Translations under genes and position numbers: made by a program
Assembly (NCBI GenBank): GCA_041178225.1
Contig: JBEGVV010000258.1
Coordinates: forward strand, 1,514-65,513
DNA length: 64,000 nucleotides
Source: Pseudomonadota bacterium
Lineage (GTDB): Bacteria > Pseudomonadota > Alphaproteobacteria > CACIAM-22H2
Direction of reading: 5' to 3'
The notes under the pieces: model-generated
Databases searched by the model: none
The model's input: the letters and a program-made list of their open reading frames with translations, nothing else
What the model was told of the DNA's origin: nothing
Shown here: piece after piece, positions 8,212 to 35,300 of the stretch
Position numbering within the stretch: the first letter of the stretch is position 1
Layout: the number at the start of each line of letters is the position of its first letter

Positions 8212-9921
<1,710 letters not shown>

Positions 9922-9924
9922 GGC

Positions 9925-10296
9925 TCAGCCCCCCTTCCGCTTCGCGGCCTTGCGCTTCGGCGCGGCCGGCTTCCCCGCGGCGCGCCTCGCGTCCAGCGCG
10001 CCGTTCACCATGCCGCGGAAGCCATGGACGACACGGTCGCCGCCGAAGGCCACGAGCCCGACCTCGCGTGTCTGGCCGGGCTCGAAGCGCACCGCCGTGC
10101 CGGCGGGGATGTCGAGGCGCATGCCGCGCGCGGCCGCGCGGTCGAAGCGCAGCGCGGCGTTGGTCTCGTGGAAATGGTAGTGCGAGCCGACCTGGATCGG
10201 CCGGTCGCCGGTGTTGGCGACCTGGAGGCGCAGCGTGCGGCGGCCCGCGTTGAGCTCGATGTCCCCGGCCGCGAGGATGTATTCGCCCGGCTTCAT
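9925..10296 (-). CDS. ureB: Urease beta subunit UreB with a Lys/Ala-rich C-terminal extension
   Basis: Begins [19 protein letters not shown]...[13 protein letters not shown] and ends in a ...[18 protein letters not shown] tail. Confidence 0.9.
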
Positions 10297-10300
10297 GGCG

Positions 10301-10603
10301 TCACCTGATCGGCTGGTGGACGGTCACCAGCTTCGTGCCGTCCGGGAAGGTCGCCTCGACCTGGATCTCGTGGATCATCTCAGCCACGCCGGACATCACC
10401 TGGCCGCGCGCGACCACCTCGGCCCCCGACTTCATCAGGTCGGCGACGCTGCGCCCGTCCCGCGCGCCCTCGACGACATGGTCGGTGATCAGCGCGATCG
10501 CCTCGGGATGGTTGAGCTTCACGCCGCGCTCGAGGCGGCGGCGCGCCACCACGGCCGCCATCGCCACCAGCAGCTTGTCCTTCTCTCGGGGCGTCAGGTT
10601 CAT
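10301..10603 (-). CDS. ureA: Urease gamma subunit UreA
   Basis: 100 aa reading [13 protein letters not shown]...[10 protein letters not shown]. Confidence 0.95.
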
Positions 10604-14285: not shown

Positions 14286-16178
14286 TCAGCGCCTGAAGCG
14301 CGCGAGCTCCTCGGCGACGCGGGCGAAGACGCTCTTCCAGTCGCGCTGGCGCGGCTGGCGGAACAGGCGCATCGACGGGTACCAGGGCGTGTCGTCGCGC
14401 CCGAGCATCCAGCGCCAGTCGGGCGAGAACGGGACCATCGTCCAGACCGGGCGGCGGATCGCGCCGGCGAGGTGCACGATCGAGGTGTCGGCGGCGACGA
14501 GCAGGTCGAGCGCGCAGAGCGCCGCCGCGCTTTCCGCGAAGTCGGTGAGCAGCGGCGCCATGTCCTCCACCTTGCCGAGCCGCGCGAGGTCGGCGTCGTC
14601 GCCCTCGCGCCGGTTCTTCTGCATGGAGAAGAAGCGCACGCCCGGCACGTCGAGGAGCGGGCCGAAGGCGAGCGGGCGGAACGACCTGTGGTGGTCGTTG
14701 CCGTGCTGCGGGTTGCCCGCCCAGACGAGGCCCACGCGCAGCCCGCCGCCCTGCCCCAGCCGCTCCTTCCAGGCGCGCACCAGCTCCGGGTCCGGCGCGA
14801 GCTCGTCGCCGGGCGGCGGGATCGTGTCGAGCTCGCAGGCGAGCACGCCGGGGATGCTCAGCAGCGGGCAATGCACGTCGAAATGCGGCAGCGGGTTGCC
14901 GCGCTGCACGAGGCGGATGCCAGGCCGCGCGAGCGGCGCGGCAAGGCGCAGCAGTTCGGGCTGGATCTCCACGACGACGTCGGCGCCGAGCGCGCGCACG
15001 ATCGGCACGTAGCGCAGGAACTGCAGCGTGTCGCCCAGGCCCTGCTCGGCATGGAGCAGGATCGTCTGCCCGACGATGGACTCGCCGCGCCACCAGGGCT
15101 GCCGGAAGGGCCGCGGCGGCAGGACGGCGAGCTTCCAGCGCGCCTCGTAGCGCTCCCAGCCCTCGCGGAACTGGCCCAGCGTGAGCAGCGCCTGGCTCAT
15201 GTTGCTGACGGCCTCGTGGTAGACGGGCCTCAGCTCGAGGGCCTTGCGGAAATGCGCCACCGCCTCCTCGTGGCGGCAGCGACCCATCAGGACGATGCCG
15301 AGGTTGCCGAAGCCATCCGCATAGTTCGGCCGCAGCTCCAGCGCCTTGCGGTAGCAGGCCTCGGCCTCGTCGAGGCGCCCCTGCCGGAAGAACGTGTTGC
15401 CGAGGTTGTTGTGCGCCTCGGGGAAGTCCTCGCGGATCGCGATCGCGGCGCGGAAGCTCGCCTCGGCGTCGGCGAGGCGGCCGAGATGCTTGAGGCGGCT
15501 GCCCAGCTGGTTGTGCGCCTCGGCGTCGCGCGGATCGAGCTCGATCGCGCGGCGGAAGCACGCGATCGCCTCGTCGTGCTTGTTCTGGCGCGCGAGCACC
15601 ATGCCCTGGCCGCGATGCGCGTCGCCGTAGTCCGGGCGCAGCCCGAGGGCCTCGAGGAAATGCTTCGCGGCGTCGTCGAGCGCGCCCGACTTGCGCAGCA
15701 GGTGGCCGAGGTTGTTGTGCGCCTCCGGGAATTCGGGGCGGGCCGCGATCGCGGCGCGGTAGCTCGCCGCGGCCTCGCGCCAGCGCTGGCGCTTCTCGTG
15801 CAGCGCGCCGAGGTTGTTGTGCGCGTCCGCGTAGCGGCGGTCCAGCTTCACCGCCTGCTCGTAGTGCTTCTGCGCCTCGTCGAGCCGGCCGAGCGCCTGC
15901 AGCGCCGTGCCAAGGTTGCCGTGGAAGGGCGCCGCGCCCGGATTGGCGGCGATGGCCGCGCGGATCTTCTCGACCGCCGCCGCCGGCTCGCCGCGCTGGA
16001 TGTCGAGCACGCCCATGAGGTGCAGCGCGCCGGGATGGCCGGGCCGCTCGCGCAGCACGCGCTCGTAGAGCGCCTGCGCCTCCGACAGGCGCCTTGCCTG
16101 GTGGAGCCGCACGCCCTCCTCGAACAACGCCCTGGTCCCGGCCGCCGCCTCGGCGGAGGGGGCGCCGCTCCCGGTCAT
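14286..16178 (-). CDS. TPR-repeat protein with a C-terminal glycosyltransferase family 9 (heptosyltransferase-like) domain
   Basis: Seven or more TPR units (AHNNLG..., EAHNNLG...) are followed by HAEQGLGDTLQFLRY and a GT9-like C-terminus. Confidence 0.75.
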   Translation of the reverse strand: MTGSGAPSAEAAAGTRALFEEGVRLHQARRLSEAQALYERVLRERPGHPGALHLMGVLDIQRGEPAAAVEKIRAAIAANPGAAPFHGNLGTALQALGRLDEAQKHYEQAVKLDRRYADAHNNLGALHEKRQRWREAAASYRAAIAARPEFPEAHNNLGHLLRKSGALDDAAKHFLEALGLRPDYGDAHRGQGMVLARQNKHDEAIACFRRAIELDPRDAEAHNQLGSRLKHLGRLADAEASFRAAIAIREDFPEAHNNLGNTFFRQGRLDEAEACYRKALELRPNYADGFGNLGIVLMGRCRHEEAVAHFRKALELRPVYHEAVSNMSQALLTLGQFREGWERYEARWKLAVLPPRPFRQPWWRGESIVGQTILLHAEQGLGDTLQFLRYVPIVRALGADVVVEIQPELLRLAAPLARPGIRLVQRGNPLPHFDVHCPLLSIPGVLACELDTIPPPGDELAPDPELVRAWKERLGQGGGLRVGLVWAGNPQHGNDHHRSFRPLAFGPLLDVPGVRFFSMQKNRREGDDADLARLGKVEDMAPLLTDFAESAAALCALDLLVAADTSIVHLAGAIRRPVWTMVPFSPDWRWMLGRDDTPWYPSMRLFRQPRQRDWKSVFARVAEELARFRR

Positions 16179-21827: not shown

Positions 21828-24314
21828 ATGGCGTTCCGCGGCCTCGACGAGGACGAGGCCGCGCGCCGCCTCGCGCAGGCCGGGCCCAATGCCCTGCCCG
21901 CGCCGCGCGGCCGCGGGCTCCTGCGCTTCTTCGCGGAGGTCCTGGAGGAACCGATCTTCCTCCTGCTCGTCGGCGCGGCGGTGCTCTACCTCGCGATCGG
22001 CGACGCCGCGGAGGGCATCCTCATGGCCGGATGCGCGGCGGTCTCCGTCGCGCTGGTCGCCGTGCAGTCCTGGCGCAGCGAGAAGGTGCTCGCGGCGCTC
22101 AAGGGCATCGTCGCGCCGCGCGCCCTCGTCGTGCGCGGCGGCGCGACGCGGCGCGTGGGCGCCGAGACGATCGTCCCGGGCGACTTCGTGGTCCTCGCGC
22201 CCGGGGACCGGGTGCCAGCCGACGGGATCCTGCGCGAGGGCGCCGGACTGGTGCTCGACGAATCCGCGCTGACCGGGGAATCCGTGCCGGTGCGCAAGCG
22301 CGCCAGCGAGGAGCCCGGGCCCGGCGACGCCACGCCGGGCGGCGACGACACGCCCTTCGTCTTCTCCGGCACGCTCGTGCTCTCCGGCGAGGGCATCGCC
22401 GAGGCCACCGCGACGGGGCCGCGCAGCCGCGTCGGCGCGATCGGCGCGGCGCTCGCGACGCTGCGCTGGCCACCCACGCCGCTGCAGCTCGCGACCGCCC
22501 GGCTCGTGCGGCGCCTGGCGCTCGTCGGCGTCGCGCTCTCGATCCTCGTCGGCGCGCTCCACTACGCGCGCGAGGCCGACTGGCTGCAGGCCACGCTGGC
22601 CGGCATCACGCTCGCGATGAGCGCGATGCCGGAGGAACTGCCGATGGTCCTCGCGATCTTCCTCGCGATGGGGGCGTGGCGGCTGTCGCGCCATGGCGTC
22701 CTCGCGCGGCAGCCAAGCGCCGTGCTCGCGCTCGGCGCCACCACGGTGCTGTGCGTCGACAAGACGGGCACGATCACCGAGAACCGCATCCGCCTGGAGC
22801 GCATGGCCATCCCGGGCGCTGTCGCCGGCGTCGAAGAGGCGGTGGCCGATGCGCGCTTCGCGCCCCTGCGCGCCGCGGCGCTCCATGCCTCGCACCCCCA
22901 GGGCGGCGATCCGATGGACCGCGCGACGCATGCGCTTGGCCCTGCGCCGGCGGGAGGCGCGCTGCGCGAGTACCCGATCGAGGCGCGCAGGCCACGCGTC
23001 GCCTTCGCCTGGCCGGATGGCGCAGGCGTGCTCGTCGCGGCCAAGGGCGCGCCCGAGGAGATCGCGCGCCTCTGCCGCCTCGACGCGGACGCCGCGCGCG
23101 CGGCCATGGCCAGCGTCGAGGTGCTGGCCGCCGAGGGATTGCGCGTCCTCGCCGTGGCCACGGCGCGCGCGCCGTCGGCTCCCGACGAGATCGACGGCCT
23201 CGCCTTCGCCTGGGCGGGGCTGCTCGCCTACGGCGACCCGGTCCGCAAGTCCGCGCGCGCGAGCATCGAGGAATGCCTCGCCGCCGGCATCGAGGTCGTG
23301 ATGATCACCGGCGACTATCCTGCGACGGCCTGCGCGGTTGCGCGCCACGCAGGCATCGACGCGACCGGCCACTCCATGTCCGGCGCCGAGGTCGCGCGGC
23401 TCGACGACGCGGCGCTGCGCGAGGCGGTCGCCGGCAAGCGCGTCTTCGCGCGCACCGAGCCCGGGCAGAAGCTGCGCATCGTCGAGGCGCTGCGCGCGCG
23501 CGGCCATGTCGTCGCGATGACCGGGGATGGCGTCAACGACGCGCCGGCGCTGCGCGCGGCGCATGTCGGCGTGGCCATGGGCAGCCGCGGCACCGACGTC
23601 GCGCGCGAGGCCGCGGGCCTCGTCGTGCTCAACGACGACCTCGGCTCGATCGTCTCCGCGATCCGCCTCGGCCGGCGCATCGCCGACAACATCCGCAAGG
23701 CGATGGTGTTCGTCGTCGCGGTCCACGTCCCACTTGTCGGCCTCGCCCTGCTGCCGCTGCTGCTCGGCTGGCCGCCGATGCTCGCGCCGGTTCACGTCAT
23801 CTTCCTCGAGCTCGTCATCGACCCGACCTGCGCGATCGTCTTCGAGGCGCAGGAGGCCGAGCGCCGCGCCATGCGCCGCCCGCCGCGGCCCGCCAGCCGC
23901 ACCGTCGCCTCGCCGCTCACCATCGCGCTCGCGGTGGCGCAGGGCTGCGCCCTGCTCGCCTGCGCCTTCGCGGCCTATGGCGGCGCGCTCGGGCTCGGCC
24001 TGCCCCATGGGGAGGCGCGCGCGCTCGGCTTCGTGGCCCTGGTCGCCGGCACGCTCTGCCTCGCGCTCACCAACCTGTCCTGGGACGACTTCGCCTTCGC
24101 GCCGCGGATCCTCTCCCATCCCGCCGTTGCCCTCGCCGCCGGCGCGACCAGCGCGATGCTCGCGCTGCTCCTCGCATGGCCGGCCGCGCGCGGCGTCTTC
24201 GGCTTCGCGGTCCCCGCGGCGGGGCCCCTCGCCATCGCGGTCGTGGCCGGCGCCGCCTCGGTGCTCTGGTTCGAGGCGGTGAAGCGCGGCGGGCTGATGG
24301 CGCGCGGGGCCTGA
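21828..24314 (+). CDS. Cation-transporting P-type ATPase (type II, Ca2+/Mg2+-like)
   Basis: DKTGTIT phosphorylation motif, TGES, MITGD and TGDGVNDAPAL. Confidence 0.9.
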   Translation: MAFRGLDEDEAARRLAQAGPNALPAPRGRGLLRFFAEVLEEPIFLLLVGAAVLYLAIGDAAEGILMAGCAAVSVALVAVQSWRSEKVLAALKGIVAPRALVVRGGATRRVGAETIVPGDFVVLAPGDRVPADGILREGAGLVLDESALTGESVPVRKRASEEPGPGDATPGGDDTPFVFSGTLVLSGEGIAEATATGPRSRVGAIGAALATLRWPPTPLQLATARLVRRLALVGVALSILVGALHYAREADWLQATLAGITLAMSAMPEELPMVLAIFLAMGAWRLSRHGVLARQPSAVLALGATTVLCVDKTGTITENRIRLERMAIPGAVAGVEEAVADARFAPLRAAALHASHPQGGDPMDRATHALGPAPAGGALREYPIEARRPRVAFAWPDGAGVLVAAKGAPEEIARLCRLDADAARAAMASVEVLAAEGLRVLAVATARAPSAPDEIDGLAFAWAGLLAYGDPVRKSARASIEECLAAGIEVVMITGDYPATACAVARHAGIDATGHSMSGAEVARLDDAALREAVAGKRVFARTEPGQKLRIVEALRARGHVVAMTGDGVNDAPALRAAHVGVAMGSRGTDVAREAAGLVVLNDDLGSIVSAIRLGRRIADNIRKAMVFVVAVHVPLVGLALLPLLLGWPPMLAPVHVIFLELVIDPTCAIVFEAQEAERRAMRRPPRPASRTVASPLTIALAVAQGCALLACAFAAYGGALGLGLPHGEARALGFVALVAGTLCLALTNLSWDDFAFAPRILSHPAVALAAGATSAMLALLLAWPAARGVFGFAVPAAGPLAIAVVAGAASVLWFEAVKRGGLMARGA

Positions 24315-25202: not shown

Positions 25203-26828
25203 ATGACCTCCGGCCGGGACCCGGAGGCGCCACCGCCCCCGCCCGCGCGCGACCTGGCCCTCCTGCGCGAGGCGGACCGGCTCGCGGCCAGCGGCGACGC
25301 GCGCGGCGCGCTCGCGCTGTTCGACGCGGCATCGCGAGGGCCGCTGGCCGCGTATGCGCTGCTGCGCACGGGCCAGCTCCTCCATGCGCAGGGCGCGCAT
25401 GCGGCGGCGATGGACGCGCTCGGCCGGGCGGCCATGCTGCGCCCGGGCGATGCGCCGATCCTCTTCGCGCTGGGCAACGCCGCGCGCGACCTCGGGCGCG
25501 TGGACGAGGCCGAGGCGCATTTCCGCGCCGCGCTTGGCGTGGCTCCGGCGAGCCCGGAGCCAGCCGTGAACCTCGCCAACCTCCTCCGCAGGCAGGGCCG
25601 CGCGGCCGAGGCGCAAGCGATCCTCTCCGCCTCGCTCGCGCGCAATCCGGGCTCGGCGGCGCTGCACGAGGCCGCCGGCCTCGCCGCGCTTGACGCGCGC
25701 GACCACGAGGCCGCCTGCGCCAGCCTCCTCGAGGCGCTGCGCCTCGCGCCGGGCCGCGCCGAGACGCAGGCCAACCTCGCCGAGGCGCAGGCCGGGGCGG
25801 GCCGCCACGGCGAGGCGGTGCGCCTGCTCGATGCCGCCATCCCGCGCCTCGCCGACCCTTCGCTCGCGCGCCTCAACCGCGCCCATGCGCTGATGGCGCT
25901 GGGCCGCTGGACGGAGGCCTGGATCGACTACGAGGCAAGGTTCGGCAGGGCATCCATGGCGGGCGCCGCGCGGCACCCCTCCCGGATCCCCCTGCCCGCC
26001 TGGCGCGGCGGCCCGGCGCCGGCAGGTCCTCTCCTCGTCTGGGGCGAACAGGGCCTGGGCGACGAGATCGTCGGCGCCAGCCTCCTGCCCGCTCTTGCCG
26101 GGCAGGTGGGCGAAATCGTGGTCGAGGCGAGTCCTCGCCTCGTCGCGCTCCTCGCGCGCAGCTTCCCGGGCCTGCGCGTCGTCGCGCGCGACGACGCGTC
26201 CGTGCCCCAGGGCTGCGTGGCGCATGTCCCGATGGGAAGCCTGATGGCGATCCTGGGATGGACGCCCGCGCGGATGCCGATGCCAGCCGTGCTCGTGGCG
26301 GACCGCGCGCGCGCCGAAGCCGCCGCGGCACGGCATCGCCGCCCCGGCCGCCGGCTCGTCGGCCTCGCCTGGGCGAGCGGCGCGGCCGGCGGGCTCGGCG
26401 CGCTGAAGACGCTGCCGCGCGACGAGCTCGCGCGCCTCGTCCGCGGGAGCGACGCCGTCTTCCTCGACCTGCAATATGGCGATACCGAAAGGACGCGCGC
26501 CGAGCTCGCCGCGGCGACCGGCGCGGAGATCCTCCGCGACCGCGAGATCGACGTGCGATCGGACATCGACGGGCTGGCCGCGCTCTGCGCCGCCTGCGAC
26601 GCGGTCGTCACCACGAGCAACGTCACGGCGCATGTCGCAGGCGCGCTCGGCGCCGAGACGCATGTCCTCGTGCCGTCCGGCCACGCGCAGCTCTGGTACT
26701 GGACGCCCTCGCCCGGCGCGGCCGCGTTCTACGCGCGCGCCACGCTCCACCGGCAGGACGGCGCCGGCTGGCGCGGCGCGGTCGATTCCGTCCGCGCGGC
26801 GCTCGCCGTCAGGCCACCCACTCGCTGA
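25203..26828 (+). CDS. TPR-repeat protein with a C-terminal GT9 (heptosyltransferase-like) domain; paralog of 14286..16178
   Basis: TPR units are followed by GEQGLGDEIVGASLLP and a GT9-like C-terminus. Confidence 0.7.
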   Translation: MTSGRDPEAPPPPPARDLALLREADRLAASGDARGALALFDAASRGPLAAYALLRTGQLLHAQGAHAAAMDALGRAAMLRPGDAPILFALGNAARDLGRVDEAEAHFRAALGVAPASPEPAVNLANLLRRQGRAAEAQAILSASLARNPGSAALHEAAGLAALDARDHEAACASLLEALRLAPGRAETQANLAEAQAGAGRHGEAVRLLDAAIPRLADPSLARLNRAHALMALGRWTEAWIDYEARFGRASMAGAARHPSRIPLPAWRGGPAPAGPLLVWGEQGLGDEIVGASLLPALAGQVGEIVVEASPRLVALLARSFPGLRVVARDDASVPQGCVAHVPMGSLMAILGWTPARMPMPAVLVADRARAEAAAARHRRPGRRLVGLAWASGAAGGLGALKTLPRDELARLVRGSDAVFLDLQYGDTERTRAELAAATGAEILRDREIDVRSDIDGLAALCAACDAVVTTSNVTAHVAGALGAETHVLVPSGHAQLWYWTPSPGAAAFYARATLHRQDGAGWRGAVDSVRAALAVRPPTR

Positions 26829-28485
26829 CCGGCGCGCGCGCCTCGTTGAGCGGCTGGCAGACGACGTCGACGAGCGTCGGCCCGCCATGCTCGATCGCGG
26901 TGCGGAGCGTCTGGCGCAGTTCCGCGGGATCCTCGACGCGCCAGCTCCTGACACCGAAGGCCGCGGCCACGGCGGCATGGTCGGTGCGGTTGAAGTCGAC
27001 GGAGAAGTAGCGGCCGTCATAGCCGGTCTTCTGGCCGGCCTTGATCCAGCCAAAGACCGAGTTGGAGACGACGACCATGGTCACCGGCACGCGGTTGCGG
27101 ACGATGGTCTCCATCTCGCCGCAGGAGAAGCCGAAGCTGCCGTCGCCCATCACGGCGACGACCTTCGACGACGGCCGCCCGTACCACGCCCCCACCGCGC
27201 CGGGCAGCGAGTAGCCGAGCGCGCCATGGGCGCGGTTGGTGATGAACCAGCGGCCCGCGCGGTGCTTCGGGTAGAAGGCCGAGAAATAGGGGCAGGGCGT
27301 GCCGGGATCCGCGACGATGACGGCGTCGTCGCCGAGCACGGCCGCGAGCTCGGCGACCAGCCGCTCGGGCTTGATAGGCCGGTCGTCGGAGAGCGCGAGC
27401 GGCCTGTAGGCGGCCTCCTTCTCCGCGCGCGCCTTCGCGACCATCGCGATCGCCCCGGACGGGTCGCGGCGCGCCACGGCCGAGGCGAGCGCCGCGAGCG
27501 CGAGGCGGGCATCGCCCACGACGCCGGCCTCGGTCTGGAAATTGGCGCCGATCACGCCCGGCTCCACGTCGACATGGACGATGCGCGTGCCGGGCCTCGG
27601 GTGGCGCCAGCGCTCGGTCGTGACCGACCCCGCGCGGCAGCCCACGAACACGACGAGGTCCGCGGCATCGACGATCGCGCGCGTCGCCGCGACGCCGCCA
27701 TTCGAGCCGACGACGCCCGCATGCAGCGGATGCGAATCCGGCATCGAGCCCTGGCCGCTTATCGTCGTGCAGACCGGCGCGCCGATGCGCTCGGCCAGCG
27801 CCGCGAGCTCGGCCTCGGCGTGGGAGAGCACGACGCCGCCGCCAAGCACCAGCACCGGCCGCGTCGCGGAGTCGATCGCCCTCGCGGCCGCCTCGATCGC
27901 GGCGGGATCGGGCGCCACGCGCGCGGCGGGCGCGGCGCCGAAGCGCCGGTCGGCCCAGACGTCCTGCTCGTCGACCGGCGCCTTCTGCACGTCGAAGGGA
28001 AGTCCGAGATGCACCGCGCCCGGACGGCCCGTCGTCATGGTGCGGAAGGCGCGCCGCAGGATCGACGGTATGTCGGCCGCGCGATCGATCACGCTCGTCC
28101 ACTTGGAGAGCGGCCGGAACAGCGCCTCCTGGTCGAGCTCGGTCAGGGTGTACTTGCCGCGCGAGGACACGGAGATGTCCGTCGTCACGGCCAGCAGCGG
28201 GATCGAGCTCTCGTGCGCCTCGACCACGCCGGGAAGGATGTAGGTCGCGCCGCCGCCCGAGGGCCCCTCGCAGACGCCGACCTTGCCGGTGACCCGCGCG
28301 TAGCAATCCGCCATGTAGGCCGCGGAGCGCTCGTCGCGGGTCAGGACATGGGTGATCCCGTGGTCGAGCCGCGCGAGCGCGTCGTAGAGCGGCAGGCTCG
28401 TGTCGCCGCACAGCCCGAAGACATGCGTGACGCCATGGTGCTGGAGCATGCGCACGAAGGCTTCGGCGCCGGAGAGCTGGTTCAT
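26809..28485 (-). CDS. Thiamine-diphosphate-dependent enzyme (acetolactate synthase large subunit / benzoylformate-decarboxylase-like)
   Basis: 558 aa. It has the ThDP N-terminal domain HVFGLCGDTSLPLYDAL and a GDGSF ThDP-binding motif. Confidence 0.85.
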   Translation of the reverse strand: MNQLSGAEAFVRMLQHHGVTHVFGLCGDTSLPLYDALARLDHGITHVLTRDERSAAYMADCYARVTGKVGVCEGPSGGGATYILPGVVEAHESSIPLLAVTTDISVSSRGKYTLTELDQEALFRPLSKWTSVIDRAADIPSILRRAFRTMTTGRPGAVHLGLPFDVQKAPVDEQDVWADRRFGAAPAARVAPDPAAIEAAARAIDSATRPVLVLGGGVVLSHAEAELAALAERIGAPVCTTISGQGSMPDSHPLHAGVVGSNGGVAATRAIVDAADLVVFVGCRAGSVTTERWRHPRPGTRIVHVDVEPGVIGANFQTEAGVVGDARLALAALASAVARRDPSGAIAMVAKARAEKEAAYRPLALSDDRPIKPERLVAELAAVLGDDAVIVADPGTPCPYFSAFYPKHRAGRWFITNRAHGALGYSLPGAVGAWYGRPSSKVVAVMGDGSFGFSCGEMETIVRNRVPVTMVVVSNSVFGWIKAGQKTGYDGRYFSVDFNRTDHAAVAAAFGVRSWRVEDPAELRQTLRTAIEHGGPTLVDVVCQPLNEARAPVSEWVA

Positions 28486-28621
28486 CGCTTCGACCTTTCC
28501 GGTTTTCCCGCCGCGAGACTAGCGCCCCCGGGCGATGCCGAGTAGCGCCGCGACGCGGTGCCCGCCCCGCGCGAGGCCGCGATTGACGGAGGCGGCGCGC
28601 ATCCGCCCTACTGCGGGGCCC
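28486..28621. promoter_or_regulatory. Divergent intergenic region between the ThDP enzyme and the kinase-enolase-peptidase tricistron
   Basis: 136-bp gap between divergent starts. Confidence 0.3.
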
Positions 28622-29641
28622 ATGCAGGACAGCCTCGTCGAGATCCTCTCCGCGCTCCGCCGGCTCGGGCTCGTGCGGGGAGACGCCGATCCTCCCGCCG
28701 AGCCCCTCGCCGGCGGCGTGTCCTCCGACATATGGCGCATCGACCTTCCCGGCGGCGCGATCTGCGTGAAGCGCGCGCTCGCCCGGCTGCGCGTCGCGCA
28801 GGACTGGCGCGCGCCGGTCGAGCGCAACGCCTTCGAGGTCGCGTGGATGGAGGTCGCGGGCGAGGCCGTGCCAGGCGCCGTGCCGCGCCTCGTCGCCGTC
28901 GACGACGCTACGAAGCTCTTCGCGATGGAGTTCCTCGACCCGCGGACGCATCCGCTGTGGAAGGCGCGGCTGCGCGACGGGATCGCCGAGCCGCCGGTCG
29001 CGCGCGCCGTCGGCGAGCGCCTCGCGCGCATCCACGCCGCGACGGCCGGCCGCGACGACGTGGCGGCGCGGTTCCGCAGCGACGCGATCTTCCACGCGAT
29101 CCGCCTCGAGCCCTACCTGCTCGCCACCGCGCGCCGCCATCCCGACCTCGCGCCGCGGCTGGAGGCGCTCGTCGCGCGCACGGCCGCGACGCGCCTCGCG
29201 CTGGTGCACGGCGACGTCAGCCCGAAGAACATCCTGGCCGGCCCGAGCGGCCCGGTCTTCCTCGACGCCGAGTGCGCCTGGTACGGGGACCCGGCCTTCG
29301 ACGCGGCCTTCTGCCTCAACCATCTCCTGCTCAAGGCGGCATGGCGGCCGGCGCACGCGATCGCCTATCTCTCCCTCTTCGACGCTTTGCGGCGGTCCTA
29401 CCTCGCGGGCTGCGACTGGGAGCCGGTCGCCGGGCTCGAGGCGCGCATCGCCGCCCTTCTGCCCGCGCTCCTCCTGGCACGCGTCGACGGCAAGTCGCCG
29501 GTCGAGTACATCGTCGACGACGCGATGCGCGACGCGGTCCGCCGCGTCGCGCGCCCCCTTGTCGCCGCCCCTCCGGCCGACATCTCCGCCATCCGCGCGG
29601 CCTGGGCCGCCGAAACCGCCAGCTGGAGCCGCCATCCATGA
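28622..29641 (+). CDS. Kinase of the MtnK (methylthioribose kinase)/APH phosphotransferase superfamily
   Basis: VHGDVSPKNIL and DAECAWYGDPAFDAAFCLNHLLL match the MtnK HGDLHTGS / DPEFAFYGPxGFD motifs. Start MQDSLVEILSALRR. Confidence 0.7.
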   Translation: MQDSLVEILSALRRLGLVRGDADPPAEPLAGGVSSDIWRIDLPGGAICVKRALARLRVAQDWRAPVERNAFEVAWMEVAGEAVPGAVPRLVAVDDATKLFAMEFLDPRTHPLWKARLRDGIAEPPVARAVGERLARIHAATAGRDDVAARFRSDAIFHAIRLEPYLLATARRHPDLAPRLEALVARTAATRLALVHGDVSPKNILAGPSGPVFLDAECAWYGDPAFDAAFCLNHLLLKAAWRPAHAIAYLSLFDALRRSYLAGCDWEPVAGLEARIAALLPALLLARVDGKSPVEYIVDDAMRDAVRRVARPLVAAPPADISAIRAAWAAETASWSRHP

Positions 29642-30909
29642 CATCGACCCGCATCGCCCGCATCCATGGACGGCGCGTCTGGGACTCCCGCGGCCGGCCC
29701 ACGGTCGAGGCCGAGGTCGAGCTCGCGGGCGGCGCGACCGGCCGCGCCATCGCGCCCGCCGGCGCCTCGACCGGCTCGGGCGAGGCCGTCGACCTGCGCG
29801 ACGGTGGCGGCTCGCAGGGAGGCCTCGACGTCACGAAGGCCGTCGGCAACGTGAACGGGGACATCGCGAGCCTGCTGCAGGGCATGGACGCCGCCGACCA
29901 GGGCGCGGTCGATGCCGAGCTGGTCGCGCTCGACGGCACGCCGACGAAGCGGCGCCTGGGCGGCAACGCGACGATCGCCGTCTCCATGGCCGTGGCCCAT
30001 GCCTCGGCGGCGCAGCGCGGCCTGCCGCTCTGGCGCCATCTCGGCGGCGAGCGGCCGCTGGTCGCGCTGCCGGAGATCCAGGTCATCGGCGGCGGCGCGC
30101 ATGCCGCCGCGCGCGTCGACCTGCAGGATTTCCTCGTCATCGCGACCGGCGCGTCCTCGGTCGCCGAGGCGCTCGACTGGACGGGCGACGTCTATCGCGC
30201 CGCTGGCGCCATCCTGAAGGAGCGCGGCCTGCTGCAGGGCGTCGCCGACGAGGGCGGCTGGTGGCCGGCCTTCGAGTCCAACGAGGCCGCGCTCGAGACG
30301 CTCTATCGCGCGATCGAGAAGGCGGGCTTCGCGCCGGGGCGCGAGATGTCGATCTCGCTCGACATCGCCGCCACCCAGTTCCACGACAAGGGCAGCTACA
30401 GGCTGCGCCGCGACGACCGCACGATGGACGCCGCCGCGCTCGGCGCGATGCTCGCGCGCTGGGCCGACGACTACCGGATCGTGGCGATCGAGGATCCGGT
30501 CGCGGAGACCGATGCCGAGGGCATGGTGGCCTTCACCCGCGCCGTCGGCGCGCGTTGCCTCGTCGTCGGCGACGACTTCCTTGTGACCAACGCCGCGCGC
30601 ATCCGCGCCGCGGCGGCGGCAGGCGCCTGCAACACCGCGCTGATCAAGCCCAACCAGGCCGGAACGCTGAGCGAGACGAAGGCGGCCTTCGACGCCGCGC
30701 GCGCGGCCGGCTGGCGCACGATCGTCTCGGCGCGCTCGGGCGAGACCGAGGATTGCACCATCGTCCACCTCGCCGCCGCATGGGGCGCGGACCTCCTCAA
30801 GGTCGGCTCCTTCGCGCGCGGCGAGCGGACCGCGAAATGGAACGAGAGCCTGCGCCTCGCGGAAGTCGAGGGCGCGGGCTTCACGCGCTGGAAACCGATC
30901 GGGGGATGA
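29638..30909 (+). CDS. Divergent enolase-family protein (paralog; probably not the housekeeping eno)
   Basis: WDSRGRPTVEAEV, GASTG, ADEGG, IKPNQAGTLSET and SARSGETED are enolase signatures, but His is replaced by Ala in SHRSGETED and QEF is replaced by QDF. The ATG overlaps the kinase stop (ATGA). Confidence 0.8.
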   Translation: MTSTRIARIHGRRVWDSRGRPTVEAEVELAGGATGRAIAPAGASTGSGEAVDLRDGGGSQGGLDVTKAVGNVNGDIASLLQGMDAADQGAVDAELVALDGTPTKRRLGGNATIAVSMAVAHASAAQRGLPLWRHLGGERPLVALPEIQVIGGGAHAAARVDLQDFLVIATGASSVAEALDWTGDVYRAAGAILKERGLLQGVADEGGWWPAFESNEAALETLYRAIEKAGFAPGREMSISLDIAATQFHDKGSYRLRRDDRTMDAAALGAMLARWADDYRIVAIEDPVAETDAEGMVAFTRAVGARCLVVGDDFLVTNAARIRAAAAAGACNTALIKPNQAGTLSETKAAFDAARAAGWRTIVSARSGETEDCTIVHLAAAWGADLLKVGSFARGERTAKWNESLRLAEVEGAGFTRWKPIGG

Positions 30910-32045
30910 CGCCCATGTTCATCGACGCGGAGTTCGACGGCGGCAACATCGAGGTGCTCGACGCCTCGGTCCCGGGCCTCGCGAGGCTGGCGATACGGCC
31001 GGACCGCTTCTCCCACTACTACCAGTGGTTCTGCTTCCGGCTCTCCGGGGCGCGCGGGCGCGAATGCGTCCTGCGGATCGAGAACGCGTCGGGCGCGGGC
31101 TATCCCGCGGGCTGGCGCAACGGCTATCGCGCCGTCGCGTCGACCGACCGCGAGGCGTGGCGCCGCGTGCCGACATCCTATGACGGCACGGCGCTGGAGA
31201 TCCGCCTCGTGCCCGAGGCCGACTGCACCTGGATCGCCTATTTCGCGCCCTACACGCAGGAGCAGCACGACCGCTTCCTCGGGCGCGTGACCGCGGACCC
31301 GCGCGTCGTCCACGAAACCATGGGCCGCAGCCTCGACGGCAGGCCCCTCGACCTGCTGCGCATCGCGACCCCGGGCGCAGGCAAGCGCGTCGCCTGGGTC
31401 ATCGCGCGCCAGCATGCCGGCGAGACGATGGCCTCGTATTTCCTCGAGGGCTTCGTCGGCCGCCTGCTGGAACCGCACGACGAGGTCGCGGCCAACCTGC
31501 TCGACCGCTTCGTCTTCCATGTCGTGCCGAACATGAACCCCGACGGATCGCGGCGCGGTCACCTGCGCTGCAACGCCGCCGGCGTCGACCTGAACCGCGA
31601 ATGGGCCGCGCCCTCGGCCGCGCGCAGCCCGGAGATCCTCCACGTGCGCCAGCGCATGGAGAGGACCGGCGTCGACCTCTTCCTCGACATCCACGGCGAC
31701 GAGGCGACGCCGCACAACTTCCTGATCGGCTCGATGGGCGTGCCCAACCAGACCGAGGGGATGACGCGGCTCTTCCGCGACTACCTCGCCGCGCTCGTCG
31801 CCGCGACGCCGGAGCACCACGCGCATAACGGCAACTGGTCGCGCGATCCCGGCAGCATCAACCTCGCCATCGGCTCTTCATGGGTCGCGAACCGGTTCCG
31901 CTGCCTCGCGATCACGGTGGAGATGCCCTTCGCCGACGAGGACGACACGCCCGATGCCGTCCATGGATGGTCGCCGCTTCGCAGCCACCATCTCGGCCGC
32001 GCGCATCTCGACGCGGTGCGCGCGGTGGCGCCGCGCCTGCGCTGA
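30906..32045 (+). CDS. M14 zinc carboxypeptidase of the cytosolic-carboxypeptidase (CCP/Nna1-like, M14D) type
   Basis: N-domain motif FDGGNIEV, zinc ligand HAGE, NPDG and a later IHGDE. The ATG overlaps the enolase stop (ATGA). Confidence 0.75.
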   Translation: MTPMFIDAEFDGGNIEVLDASVPGLARLAIRPDRFSHYYQWFCFRLSGARGRECVLRIENASGAGYPAGWRNGYRAVASTDREAWRRVPTSYDGTALEIRLVPEADCTWIAYFAPYTQEQHDRFLGRVTADPRVVHETMGRSLDGRPLDLLRIATPGAGKRVAWVIARQHAGETMASYFLEGFVGRLLEPHDEVAANLLDRFVFHVVPNMNPDGSRRGHLRCNAAGVDLNREWAAPSAARSPEILHVRQRMERTGVDLFLDIHGDEATPHNFLIGSMGVPNQTEGMTRLFRDYLAALVAATPEHHAHNGNWSRDPGSINLAIGSSWVANRFRCLAITVEMPFADEDDTPDAVHGWSPLRSHHLGRAHLDAVRAVAPRLR

Positions 32046-32055
32046 GGCGCGTGGC

Positions 32056-35000
32056 TCAGCCGCCGTCGCCGACGACCGAGAAGGGTGCCCAGAAGATCGG
32101 GTGCGCGTAGGAGAACACGGTGCGCCCGCCCTCGACGAAGCCCGGGCCATCGATCAGCGCCAGCATCGCCTGCTGGGCTGCCTTCGCCCGCGCGAGGCCC
32201 GGATCCGCCGCCTGCCGCGCGAAGAGGTCCGTCGTCAGGGCCCGCGCGCTCGTCGTCTCGACCGGCCAGTTCGTCACCAGCAGCGCCCGCGTCCCAGCGT
32301 AGAAGAACGCGCGGCCCAGGCCGGAGACCGCCTCCGCCCCCGCGCCATCGCCCGTCGCCGTGTTGCACGCGCTCAGCACGACCCAGTCCGCATTGAGGCG
32401 CAGCCCCAGTACCTCGTCCATCGTCAGCAGGCCGTCGCCGTCGCTTCCCGCGACCGCCGGCGCCGTCAGCGCCAGCGCGGGCTGCGCCAGTCCGTTCAGG
32501 TCGCCAGGCACCAGGCCATGCGTGGCGAACATCACCACCTTGCGGTCCGAGAGGCTGGCCCCCTTCACGCGCGCCTCGCTCGCCTGCAATCCCAGGAACA
32601 CGTCGGCGGAGGGATCCGCCTTCAGCGCCACCGCGATGCTCCGCACCTCGTCGGCGGTGTCGGGAAGCCGCGGCAGGCTCGCCAGCTCGGCGCTTGCCGA
32701 GGACTGCGTCTGCGGGGCGTTGCGCCGCACCAGCGGCAGGCCTCGCGTCTGCAGCCCGCGGGTCGTCAGCTGGGCCACCTGCGTGCTGCCCGCCGCCGCC
32801 TGCTCGGTGCTGAAATACGGGTCGCCGAAGCCGATGAACGGCTTGCGCGACGCCTCCCCGGGCGCAAGGCGTCGCAACGCCCCCAGCGACGCGACCGACG
32901 GGAGCTGCGTCACCGCCTTCTCGCGCGCGAGGAACGGGACCTGCGCATAGCCGGAGAACAGCGCGCGGCCCTGAGTGTCGGCTGGCGCCGGCACCGCCCG
33001 CGTGACCAGCAGCGAGAACGGGATCTGGCCCAGCGCCTTGTCGGGCACGACCAGCAGGCTCTCCGCCCCGGCCAGCCCCGCCCTCACCGGCGCCAGGAAC
33101 TGCTCGTGCAGGCGATGCGCGAGCGCCACGTCGAAGGCGGGGATGTCGCCAAGCGTCGCCGCGTTCGGGTCAAGCGCGCGGCGCAGCCGGGCGACCGACT
33201 GCGCGATATCCTTCTCGCCGGCGGCGACCGCGGCGAAGGCCGCGGGACCGCTCTTCGGCACGGCCCACACGAAGCTTCGCGCCTGGCCAACGTAGACGCT
33301 CACCAGCGCCTCGCCGGCACGAAGCTGGGACTGCACGTCCTCGACCGTCGCGGGCCGCGGGTCGATCAGGCTCGCGTAGTCCGGGAAGCGCCGCTCGATC
33401 TCCTCGCGCAAGGACGCGCGCGCACGGCGCAGCGTGTCGATGCTCGTGCGCAGCGAAGCCGTCGCGGCCGCGTCCTGCTGGCTCGCCGGGGACGACAGGA
33501 TGTTCGACAGCAAGCCGAACTGCGCCGCGATCTGCTTGCGCGCATCCTGCTCCTGGCGCACCAGCGCCGCGAGGCCGGGGTCGCGGATCCCCGAGCGCGC
33601 CGCGCTCTCCGCCAGAGCGCGCTGCACGCCCTGCGCGCGCGCCGCGTCCGCCACGCGGAACGCCTCGGCCGCCGGGTCGAGGCCACCACCCGCGGAAGCG
33701 GGCAACGAACTCAGGAGGTCGACGTAGCTCTCCAGCACGAAGCGCTGCACGCGCTCGCGCTGCGCGCCGCCCTCCTCGTCCTCGCTCTGCCGCGACACCT
33801 GCAGCAGGACCGGCACCGACGCGCGGAAGCCGGCAAGCGCCTCCTCCCGCTTCCCCGTCGCGGCCTGCGCTGCCGCCAGGATCCCGCGCGACTGGGCCGT
33901 CTCGTAGTGCCGCTCCCCGAAATTGCGCGCGCGCTCGGACGCAAGGCGCTCGGCACTTGCCATGATCGCCGTGGCCCGGCCGGACTCGATCCGGGAGACG
34001 AGAAAGCCGGGCTGGCTCTCGACGCGGCGAAAGCGCTCGTCCGGATCGTCCGCGAACACCGCGAGGGCACGGTCGATCGCCGCATCCGACGCCGCAATGT
34101 CGCCCTCCTCGCGCGCCGCCGAGGCGGAGAGGAGGTTGCCCAAGGCGACGAAGCGCGATCCCTTGAAGACGCCATAGCGGTCGTAGGTCGCGAGGGCGAC
34201 CTCGGCGAGTTGTCGCGACTCGGCGAAACGACGCTGCTCCAGCATGTTGCGGGACAGGTTCAGCGACAGGGCGGCGACGCGAAGGCTGTCGCGCCCGAAG
34301 ACCCGCAGCGCGTGGACGAGGGCACGCCTGAACTCGACCTCGGCCTCCACCAGCCTCCCCTGCATCCGCAGCACGTTGCCGAGCTGCGCGAGGGAGACGA
34401 GGAGCTGGCTGTCCTGGAGGTCGTCGCTGACGTCCGGCACCACCGCCTTGATCGCCTGCCTGTTGGCGAGGTTCCACTGCTCGTTCTCCAGCGCGGCCCG
34501 CGAACTGCGTTCGGCCTCGGCGTAGCGCCCCTCGGCCATCCTGACCTCGGCCTCCGCGCGCAGGATCAGGGCCTCCTGCATTCGGCGAGATGCCTGGTAC
34601 CCGGACGAGCGCTGGTAGCCCGGGTCGGCGAGCGCACGCCTCGCCGCGGCAAGCCCCCGCTCGGCTGCAGCGAGATCCCCTGCCTGGGCGTCAAGGTTAG
34701 CCAGCGACGCCTCGCCCGCCGAGATTGTCCCCATCCGCCCGCTGGCGCGCGCAGCCTGCAGGCGCTTGATGGCGGCGTCATGGGCGTTCCGGGCATTGCC
34801 CACGAAGGACTCTGCCGCCATCAGTTCCTGGTAGGCCCGCGATGTGTCGAGGCGGTTTGCCTCGCCGATCCGCGCGGCCTCGCGCAGATCCCGGACCTGC
34901 CCGTCCACCAGGCCCAGTTCGCCACGCGCCTGCGCGCGCCTGAGGAGGAAGCCGTAGAGCGCGGCGGGCGAGGCACTCGCGGGAGGCTCCGCGCCGCTGG

Positions 35001-35214
35001 CGGCGCTGAGCGCGGCGACGCGCGCCGGGTCCGGGCTGGCCTGGGCGAGCAGCGCCGTGATGTCGCTGATCGTGCGCGGCGGCGGCACGAAGGCCGCCTG
35101 CCCCTGGAACCCGGCCTGGACGCGCCGCGCCTCGTCGAGGGACATGGCCGGCCGCTCGTCCTGGCAGCCGCCCATGGCAAGCAGCCCAAAGATCGCTACG
35201 ACGACGCGCTTCAT
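32056..35214 (-). CDS. Large lipoprotein with N-terminal TPR-like repeats and a C-terminal CHAT (caspase-like) protease domain
   Basis: The start MKRVVVAIFGLLAMGGCQ is a lipobox. The C-terminus has ATHG...VLSACNTATGD...GTRALLVTNWPVE, a CHAT His/Cys dyad region. The upstream 330 aa of the six-frame ORF overlaps the aminotransferase gene and is an artefact. Confidence 0.75.
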   Translation of the reverse strand: MKRVVVAIFGLLAMGGCQDERPAMSLDEARRVQAGFQGQAAFVPPPRTISDITALLAQASPDPARVAALSAASGAEPPASASPAALYGFLLRRAQARGELGLVDGQVRDLREAARIGEANRLDTSRAYQELMAAESFVGNARNAHDAAIKRLQAARASGRMGTISAGEASLANLDAQAGDLAAAERGLAAARRALADPGYQRSSGYQASRRMQEALILRAEAEVRMAEGRYAEAERSSRAALENEQWNLANRQAIKAVVPDVSDDLQDSQLLVSLAQLGNVLRMQGRLVEAEVEFRRALVHALRVFGRDSLRVAALSLNLSRNMLEQRRFAESRQLAEVALATYDRYGVFKGSRFVALGNLLSASAAREEGDIAASDAAIDRALAVFADDPDERFRRVESQPGFLVSRIESGRATAIMASAERLASERARNFGERHYETAQSRGILAAAQAATGKREEALAGFRASVPVLLQVSRQSEDEEGGAQRERVQRFVLESYVDLLSSLPASAGGGLDPAAEAFRVADAARAQGVQRALAESAARSGIRDPGLAALVRQEQDARKQIAAQFGLLSNILSSPASQQDAAATASLRTSIDTLRRARASLREEIERRFPDYASLIDPRPATVEDVQSQLRAGEALVSVYVGQARSFVWAVPKSGPAAFAAVAAGEKDIAQSVARLRRALDPNAATLGDIPAFDVALAHRLHEQFLAPVRAGLAGAESLLVVPDKALGQIPFSLLVTRAVPAPADTQGRALFSGYAQVPFLAREKAVTQLPSVASLGALRRLAPGEASRKPFIGFGDPYFSTEQAAAGSTQVAQLTTRGLQTRGLPLVRRNAPQTQSSASAELASLPRLPDTADEVRSIAVALKADPSADVFLGLQASEARVKGASLSDRKVVMFATHGLVPGDLNGLAQPALALTAPAVAGSDGDGLLTMDEVLGLRLNADWVVLSACNTATGDGAGAEAVSGLGRAFFYAGTRALLVTNWPVETTSARALTTDLFARQAADPGLARAKAAQQAMLALIDGPGFVEGGRTVFSYAHPIFWAPFSVVGDGG

Positions 35215-35300
35215 CGCCCCTCCGCCAAGCACCCCGCTTCCTGAAAATCTAGATTGCGCCGACGGGAGCGAGCAAGGACCTGGGCGACAGGCACCGCTTC

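Follow-up and report, generated by a model that had tools for sequence, protein, structure and literature searches.

The window analysed here is a 64,000-nucleotide stretch of an alphaproteobacterium (lineage CACIAM-22H2; contig JBEGVV010000258.1, positions 1,514 to 65,513, forward strand). Its base composition is ~72% G+C, and third-position G+C marks the coding frames. It contains a gene for an enolase-family protein in which Glu168 and His373 (yeast numbering) of canonical enolases are replaced by Asp and Ala. We refer to such proteins as variant or D/A-type enolases. A small-molecule kinase gene lies immediately upstream. The features of the two genes are as follows:

28535–29641 (+): APH-family, methylthioribose-kinase-like small-molecule kinase (Pfam APH, 54.6 bits, cutoff 23.2)
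29638–30909 (+): variant (D/A-type) enolase-family gene, 423 amino acids plus stop (open reading frame and translation)
30079–30102 (+): QVIGGGAH, with Gln148 and Gly151 in place of two canonical Asn residues and His155 (= His159) kept (group comparison, alignment)
30091–30105 (+): GGAHA (translation)
30124–30132 (+): QDF (translation)
30127–30129 (+): Asp164 codon, equivalent to yeast Glu168; QDF for QEF, E168D (HMMER and MAFFT alignments)
30244–30258 (+): ADEGG (translation)
30244–30264 (+): ADEGGWW, with Ala203 (canonical Gly), Glu205 (kept general acid, = Glu211) and Trp208-Trp209 (canonical Phe-Ala) (group comparison, alignment)
30361–30573 (+): metal ligands Asp242, Glu285 and Asp312, kept (= Asp246, Glu295, Asp320; invariant alignment columns)
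30643–30657 (+): IKPNQ (translation)
30646–30648 (+): Lys337, catalytic base, kept (= Lys345; translation, alignments)
30727–30753 (+): SARSGETED (translation)
30730–30732 (+): Ala365 codon, equivalent to yeast His373; SARSGETED for SHRSGETED, H373A (HMMER and MAFFT alignments)
30733–30801 (+): phosphate binders Arg366 and Ser367 through Lys388 (= Lys396), all kept (invariant alignment columns)
30793–30810 (+): LLKVGS (translation)

The enolase-family product had the two-domain architecture of enolases, with Pfam matches to Enolase_N and Enolase_C (E = 2.5e-44 and 1.2e-68). It scored 434.1 bits against the TIGR01060 'eno' equivalog (cutoff 300), and because this score is above the cutoff, the public annotation is 'phosphopyruvate hydratase'. 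The best PDB matches were canonical enolases, aligned over the full length (E = 1e-107, ~45% identity); no solved structure from the Asp/Ala branch was found among the PDB matches of the window protein. The AlphaFold model had a predicted local distance difference test score (pLDDT) of 92.6. Its template modelling (TM) score to the enolases of M. tuberculosis, E. coli and others was 0.94, at a root-mean-square deviation of 1.3–1.5 Å. By fold, architecture and most catalytic residues, the window protein is a member of the enolase family.

A sequence-only reading of this stretch had reported QDF for QEF and SARSGETED for SHRSGETED after an alignment by eye, and every motif it named was found at its place. 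HMMER alignment to the enolases of Chloroflexus (4yws) and Synechococcus (4rop) paired qdf with qef and sarsgeted with shrsge(s/t)ed, and MAFFT, run with three canonical enolases from proteobacteria, gave the same columns. The eye alignment was thus not shifted, and Asp164 and Ala365 stand where enolases carry Glu168 (QEF) and His373 (SHRSGE). The equivalents of H159, E209, K342 and K393, said to be kept, were all confirmed in GGAHA, ADEGG, IKPNQ and LLKVGS. The residue numbers mixed the E. coli and yeast schemes, but the residues intended were correct. The Ser39 loop was also kept (Ser44 in AGASTG, invariant in the alignments), as were Gln163 and the equivalents of Arg374 and Ser375, which the alignments place at Arg366 and Ser367. 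Purifying selection was strong, with a ratio of nonsynonymous to synonymous substitution rates (dN/dS) of 0.07 for the enolase against a 96%-identical homologue.

Asp and Ala were present in all 120 nearest database homologues (65–100% identity) wherever the motifs were readable. The wider family was surveyed with 150 representatives of clusters at 50% identity: 78 had Glu/His, 37 had Asp/Ala, and in about a dozen Asp was combined with a different residue (Gly, Ser, Thr and Val among others). The combination of Asp and a small residue accounted for ~50 of the 150, and mixed states were rare. The pairing of Glu with His and of Asp with a small residue gave a Fisher p of 9e-27, for sequences that are related and not phylogenetically independent. 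The equivalents of Glu168 and His373 were found in 100% of the canonical group (66–78 representatives), and positions 168 and 373 were the only ones that cleanly separated all Asp/Ala sequences from it. Among the variant enolases of the fetched loci, 93 of 95 were Asp/Ala, one was Asp/Ser and one was Asp/Thr. Asp164 was invariant in the enolase alignment (A2) and never reverted to Glu in >150 divergent sequences, though a single base change would suffice. As the altered residues are conserved and co-vary, they reflect selection within a distinct subfamily, whose signature they are, rather than decay.

Two further changes were common to most Asp/Ala sequences: GDEGG became ADEGG, and the Asn of NGGxHA became Gly or Ser. 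In yeast numbering, the set is thus Glu168 to Asp, His373 to Ala or another small residue, Gly209 to Ala and Asn155 to Gly or Ser. These changes were shared by two subtypes. Type 1, to which the window belongs, was mainly proteobacterial and additionally had Gln148, Trp208-Trp209, His377 and Trp401. Type 2 was common in Acidobacteria and lacked these residues. In a crude neighbour-joining tree, the Asp/Ala sequences formed two pure clades that were not joined as one group; the four shared derived positions and the shared kinase linkage (see below) argue for a common origin of both subtypes, as far as sequence and gene order can tell. The branch spans Alpha-, Beta- and Gammaproteobacteria, Acidobacteria and Actinobacteria.

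Some observations lie beside this signature. Type-1 enolases, and no others of the branch, have Arg13 and Glu403 (window codons 29674–29676 and 30844–30846) where canonical enolases mostly have Glu and Arg. If these residues are in contact, the charge exchange might prevent pairing with the housekeeping enolase. In seven representatives (P0125, P0128, P0136, P0147, P0156, P0175 and P0179), a different residue (Lys, Gln, Asp, Gly, Thr or Ala) stood in place of the acid Glu211, and two of them had lost the base Lys345 as well, so that the enolase family may contain more divergent, unexplored branches. Five canonical Glu/His enolases were fused to Usp, MerR, RpiB/LacAB isomerase, GT2 glycosyltransferase or guanylate kinase domains (P0148, P0154, P0202, P0235 and P0262); some of these may be gene-calling merges.

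The most informative feature of the locus, missed by the sequence-only reading, was the kinase gene upstream, whose TGA stop shares bases with the ATG of the enolase gene (ATGA). The true start is probably Met30 at 28622, as the homologues comprise ~339 amino acids. Against the equivalog model of methylthioribose (MTR) kinase, TIGR01767, the protein scored 57.5 bits (cutoff 275), meaning that the fold alone is shared, and there were no methionine-salvage genes nearby. The kinase model (pLDDT 91.9) had MTR kinase as the nearest PDB fold (TM 0.8), followed by PsiK and LxmK. The ATP-binding K50, the HGDxxxxN loop (H196-G-D198 and N203) and the Mg-binding D215 were invariant in the kinase alignment (A1).

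The link between the two genes was followed in 87 variant-enolase loci (80 from species-representative genomes, three metagenome contigs, three plasmids and the window). A kinase homologue lay directly upstream on the same strand in 80 of them, usually with the ATGA overlap, and two more loci were cut by a contig end. On three acidobacterial contigs, type-2 enolases had the kinase upstream with the same 4-nt overlap. On plasmid pMNOD02 of Methylobacterium nodulans, the order was reversed (enolase, then kinase), again with a 4-nt overlap, and the enolase was Asp/Ala. Two cluster representatives (P0126 and P0160) were kinase-enolase fusion proteins. The reverse look-up from kinase homologues found an adjoining enolase in three of three cases.

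A sub-group of Asp/Ala enolases was observed without an adjoining kinase in Ralstonia pickettii (L017), Piscinibacter (L058) and a Rhizobium indicum plasmid (L084). Its cluster comprised a cupin, the enolase, an HpaD-like extradiol dioxygenase and a Zn-alcohol dehydrogenase, with a fumarylacetoacetase-family gene nearby. This sub-group may serve a different role.

Natural controls were provided by accessory enolases without an APH neighbour. On plasmid byi_1p of Burkholderia sp. YI23 (locus L099, 1–5275), an operon holds tartrate dehydrogenase, a TtuD-type 'hydroxypyruvate reductase', pyruvate kinase and an enolase, and this enolase was canonical. The same was true for the enolase on plasmid p76-1 of Pseudomonas orientalis (locus L098, 492–5278), beside a CLC-family channel and two DUF190 genes, and for that on p3 of Azospirillum brasilense Sp7, which adjoins pflB, pta and ack. 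The motifs QEF, GDEGGFAP and SHRSGET were present in each of the three, and these kinase-free controls were the only three Glu/His enolases in the fetched loci. The p76-1 enolase also occurs on several P. syringae plasmids; from its gene content, the cluster looks like fluoride resistance with a spare copy of the fluoride-sensitive enzyme. A fluoride-responsive accessory enolase was considered for the window gene as well and rejected: its neighbours are unrelated, the enolase of the fluoride cluster is canonical Glu/His, and no Rfam riboswitch, hence no fluoride riboswitch, was found in the window.

The variant enolase is a paralogue, because A. brasilense Sp7 has a canonical enolase on p3 in addition to the variant, which lies on replicon p1. 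Its occurrence was not that of a single-copy housekeeping gene: at least 552 relatives were found among 185,579 species genomes with the query's own peptide patterns. The distribution was patchy, and several copies were on plasmids or chromids.

Of 146 immediate flanking genes, 32 encoded a D-isomer-specific 2-hydroxyacid dehydrogenase (2-Hacid_dh), and no other family exceeded five. This dehydrogenase was placed just downstream or divergently upstream of the cassette. It was nearest to glycerate dehydrogenase/glyoxylate reductase, its closest PDB relative, and to short phosphoglycerate dehydrogenases. TctC-type transporters also recurred near the cassette. On the Rhizobium indicum plasmid, the kinase, the dehydrogenase and PEP (phosphoenolpyruvate) carboxylase (ppc) were adjacent, and the enolase lay on the opposite strand at a distance of 6 kb. 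In Paracoccus seriniphilus, Roseibium aggregatum and on a B. pseudomallei plasmid, the pair was part of sugar operons with short-chain dehydrogenases/reductases, a lactonase, a sugar ABC transporter and a fumarylacetoacetase-family hydrolase. The best model for the hydrolase of the Paracoccus operon was 2,4-didehydro-3-deoxy-L-rhamnonate hydrolase, below cutoff (352 vs 500 bits). Hydrolases of this type release pyruvate and a short hydroxy acid (PMC6336799). No sugar-acid dehydratase that would name the sugar was annotated within reach of the Paracoccus and Roseibium operons. The window itself has neither the dehydrogenase partner nor a second enolase.

Taken together, the D/A-type enolases represent a branch of the enolase family that is old, widely distributed and uncharacterised, and they are probably the lyase half of a conserved two-gene kinase-lyase cassette. 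The variant enolase is probably part of a dedicated two-step route into PEP and not a housekeeping glycolytic enzyme. Retention of the ligand and catalytic residues named above implies that a 2-phospho carboxylic acid is still bound with two Mg2+ ions and that Lys337 removes its alpha proton. The tight and ancient coupling to the kinase, including fusions, indicates that the two enzymes act one after the other, with the kinase supplying the phospho acid that the enolase-like enzyme uses up. The neighbouring dehydrogenase, hydrolase and ppc genes suggest that this acid is glycerate-like, with three carbons, and that PEP is formed from it.

The steps of such a route would be the following. In many genomes, the co-encoded D-2-hydroxyacid dehydrogenase would make a 2-hydroxy acid from a 2-oxo acid, for which hydroxypyruvate is the obvious candidate; in a few genomes, the diketo-sugar-acid hydrolase would supply it. 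The kinase would phosphorylate the 2-hydroxyl of the free glycerate-type acid with ATP. The enolase-like enzyme would then bind the 2-phospho acid in its two-Mg2+ site, its Arg/Ser/His phosphate site and its Lys/Gln carboxylate site. Lys337 would take the C2 proton, and the C3 group would leave with the aid of Glu205 and Asp164 to give PEP.

In yeast enolase, Glu168, Glu211 and His373 handle the C3 hydroxyl, i.e. the leaving group. Because four co-varying changes lie at or beside the residues that contact this group, and because accessory enolases that act on genuine 2-phosphoglycerate (2-PGA) keep Glu/His, the preferred substrate seems more likely than not to differ from plain D-2-PGA. The departure could be in the stereochemistry, the C3 substituent or the leaving group. 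We assign a probability of about 0.55 to this reading, in which the kinase and the variant enolase act consecutively on a substrate that departs in some way from D-2-PGA. The further claim, that these enolases and their APH kinases constitute an unrecognised two-enzyme pathway to PEP or a PEP analogue, is plausible but falls a little short of an even bet. Its starting compound would be a non-canonical 2-hydroxy acid; L-glycerate, C4 sugar acids and C3-substituted lactates such as sulfolactate are examples. The specific candidates L-2-phosphoglycerate, phosphosulfolactate and bisphosphoglycerate each have little direct support.

Several points weigh against the reading of a kinase-lyase cassette with a substrate other than D-2-PGA. 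The window protein passes the NCBI enolase equivalog threshold. The glycerate-dehydrogenase-like partner, ppc and the hydrolase are equally compatible with D-glycerate being converted to D-2-PGA and PEP. The nearest structures of the kinase phosphorylate sugars, phenols or peptides and not 2-hydroxy acids. That all changes lie in one pocket follows from the literature where Glu168, Glu211 and His373 are concerned; the other two positions are placed there by guess. Moreover, the Asp/Ala enolases and the kinase may have become linked only once, in an ancestor, so that the large number of loci does not independently attest a functional need for the pair. In the full-text literature, an enolase paired with an APH kinase was not found, and neither were L-2-phosphoglycerate enolases or a new glycerate kinase. 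The literature matches on L-2-phosphoglycerate concern the cytidylyltransferase CpgD and are unrelated.

The simplest chemistry for a dehydrogenase, a kinase and an enolase is an ordinary D-2-PGA isozyme in a module from hydroxypyruvate through D-glycerate and 2-PGA to PEP. The novelty would then be a fourth, APH-type family of glycerate 2-kinases, with Asp/Ala as a tolerated, historically fixed variation on the acid side, which the single ancestral event mentioned above would suit. This explanation agrees with the retention of all ligand, metal, base and acid residues, the TIGR01060 score, the resemblance of the partner dehydrogenase to glycerate dehydrogenase/hydroxypyruvate reductase, the ppc gene in R. 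indicum and hydrolase contexts that would yield glycerate. No canonical glycerate kinase family was among the 25 commonest flanking-gene families, and catabolic operons can hold a redundant enolase and pyruvate kinase, as the tartrate operon of Burkholderia YI23 does. However, the redundant enolase of that very operon, acting after a known type of glycerate kinase, keeps Glu/His. The persistence of Asp164 and the co-variation of four pocket positions are also difficult to attribute to mere tolerance, and the kinase is almost never found without the variant enolase, which is unexpected if its product could be used by the abundant housekeeping enolase. In yeast enolase, moreover, E168Q cuts activity ~1e5-fold, and His373 variants lose at least 10-fold. 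We regard the ordinary isozyme as possible but, on balance, doubtful. A protein that is catalytically dead or moonlights, for instance by regulating or scaffolding the kinase, would account for the replacement of two residues regarded as catalytic. It is very improbable, as the metal ligands, the base, the acid and the binders of phosphate and carboxylate do not vary even though the clade is highly divergent, purifying selection is strong and the replacements are themselves conserved.

Two specific forms of a departing substrate are both unlikely. In L-glycerate salvage, 2-phospho-L-glycerate, the mirror image of the usual substrate, would be the product of the kinase and would be dehydrated to achiral PEP by the variant enolase; the Glu168/His373 side would have been rebuilt because the acid and base roles of the two faces are exchanged. 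Only the L form would need both a new kinase and a new enolase, and the cassette would be self-sufficient only if its product were central; in addition, L-glycerate would be set free by the Paracoccus hydrolase if the below-cutoff L-rhamnonate-type model is right and the enzyme acts on a non-deoxy L-hexonate. But the commonest partner is a D-specific dehydrogenase, which cannot make L-glycerate, the full-text search gave no support, and we know of no precedent in the enolase superfamily for Glu as the base that takes the alpha proton. This makes the L form unlikely. Still a little less probable is a different, larger leaving group on a D-configured 2-phospho acid. The acid could be, for example, 2-phospho-(S)-3-sulfolactate, which would lose sulfite in a reversal of methanogen ComA chemistry, or 2,3-bisphosphoglycerate, which would lose phosphate; PEP would be formed in both cases. 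The substitutions shrink three side chains beside the C3 site, the partner dehydrogenase scores equally on phosphoglycerate-dehydrogenase and glyoxylate reductase models, and it is 44% identical to a Paracoccus dehydrogenase beside a sulfolactate-dehydrogenase-like gene and a YeiH-type exporter. The recurrent TctC-type transporters point in the same direction. Yet tblastn with sulfolactate-dehydrogenase-like and YeiH-like seeds found none near the cassette in the fetched loci besides the Paracoccus seed region, and neither was among the commonest flank families. Glu205 and Asp164 would also repel an anionic leaving group, and the bisphosphoglycerate version wastes ATP.

The suggestion of the sequence-only reading that the gene encodes a neofunctionalised enolase therefore stands in part. 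A non-housekeeping paralogue with a conserved, co-varying signature and a dedicated kinase was found. A changed substrate or reaction is the unsupported part: the metal, carboxylate and phosphate binders, the Lys base and the Glu acid are all retained, and the neighbours fit glycerate to 2-phosphoglycerate to PEP equally well.

The other features of the window around the cassette are the following:

8212–10603 (-): urease genes; ureA, ureB and ureC confirmed by Pfam
9480–9769 (+): Rfam match (124 bits) to the Helicobacter '5_ureB_sRNA', antisense in the urease alpha-subunit gene
14286–16178 and 25203–26828: TPR-rich proteins
21828–24314 (+): P-type cation ATPase, a few kb upstream of the kinase-enolase pair
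26809–28485 (-): divergent thiamine pyrophosphate (TPP) enzyme, generic acetolactate-synthase-like
30906–32045 (+): M14 carboxypeptidase-like gene (Pfam Pepdidase_M14_N and Peptidase_M14), cytosolic-carboxypeptidase-like
32056–35232 (-): 1058-amino-acid TPR and CHAT-domain (caspase-like) gene, convergent on the cassette

The ATG of the M14 gene overlaps the enolase stop (ATGA), so that translational coupling joins the kinase, enolase and peptidase genes into a single unit. This partner was lineage-specific and found in three loci only (the window and its closest relatives, L004 and L005). For the TPP enzyme, glyoxylate carboligase and sulfoacetaldehyde acetyltransferase were considered, and it scored far below both cutoffs. 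It was dropped as a cassette partner because it recurs only in the window's closest relatives. A P-type ATPase was also directly upstream and divergent in Bauldia (locus L001, 3805–6579; enolase 67% identical), together with an Na+/H+ exchanger and a Usp protein; the proximity in both loci may be chance. The match to 5_ureB_sRNA in a proteobacterium of 72% G+C most likely reflects conserved urease coding sequence and not a small RNA.

Compared with canonical enolase (EC 4.2.1.11; TIGR01060, PF03952 and PF00113), the variant has the same two-domain fold and the same metal, base, acid, phosphate (Arg/Ser/His) and carboxylate (Lys/Gln) sites. It differs in Asp168, Ala373, Ala209 and Gly155 (yeast numbering) and, in type 1, in Trp-Trp after the acid Glu and in Gln for Asn152. 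It is also accessory and patchy, often lies on a plasmid or chromid, occurs along with a canonical enolase and is nearly always linked to a kinase gene. To our knowledge, enolase proper has been treated as a single-function family, and pipelines name anything above the TIGR01060 threshold 'phosphopyruvate hydratase'. The branch described here crosses phyla, with fixed alternative residues on the acid side and an obligate, sometimes fused, kinase partner. If its substrate is different, it would be a new entry route to PEP, and a systematic misannotation would be corrected. If the pathway is non-canonical, it would add a new reaction specificity to the enolase family proper and a new kinase specificity, and many genomes would mislabel these genes as glycolytic enolase and 'aminoglycoside phosphotransferase'. 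If the substrate is still 2-phosphoglycerate, the kinase would be a fourth, unrelated glycerate kinase family, and an enolase could work with Glu168 and His373 replaced, a point of relevance to the long debate on what both residues do.

A precedent for an enolase paralogue that acts on a modified 2-substituted glycerate and makes a PEP analogue is PhpH. This carboxyphosphonoenolpyruvate synthase of phosphinothricin biosynthesis is an enolase-family member recruited to secondary metabolism (PMC4748306). However, PhpH belongs to actinomycete phosphonate clusters for which no APH kinase is described; it is set apart from the variant by this context. Near the cassette there were no phosphonate genes, and no PEP mutase or phosphonopyruvate decarboxylase context was found in the window or among the flanking families.

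The same logic as in the cassette is known from glycerate 2-kinase and enolase in the serine cycle, the glycerate pathway and ttu operons, where a 2-oxo or hydroxy acid is converted to glycerate, a 2-phospho acid, PEP and oxaloacetate. The D-2-hydroxyacid dehydrogenase and sometimes ppc co-encoded with the cassette are in line with this. In contrast, the cassette kinase is of another fold family than the known glycerate kinases, and the enolase of the one ttu operon examined is canonical. The partner kinase shares its fold, the HGDxxxxN loop and the Mg-binding Asp with MtnK, the nearest solved fold, and with other APH-fold kinases. Unlike MtnK, it is below the equivalog cutoff, has no methionine-salvage genes nearby and works beside an enolase-like lyase. 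An APH-fold kinase that obligatorily works with an adjoining lyase is likewise known from LxmK/LxmY, the class V lanthipeptide dehydratase. There, the substrate is a peptide and the phosphate leaves, whereas in the cassette the phosphate is expected to stay on the product because the phosphate site of the enolase is intact.

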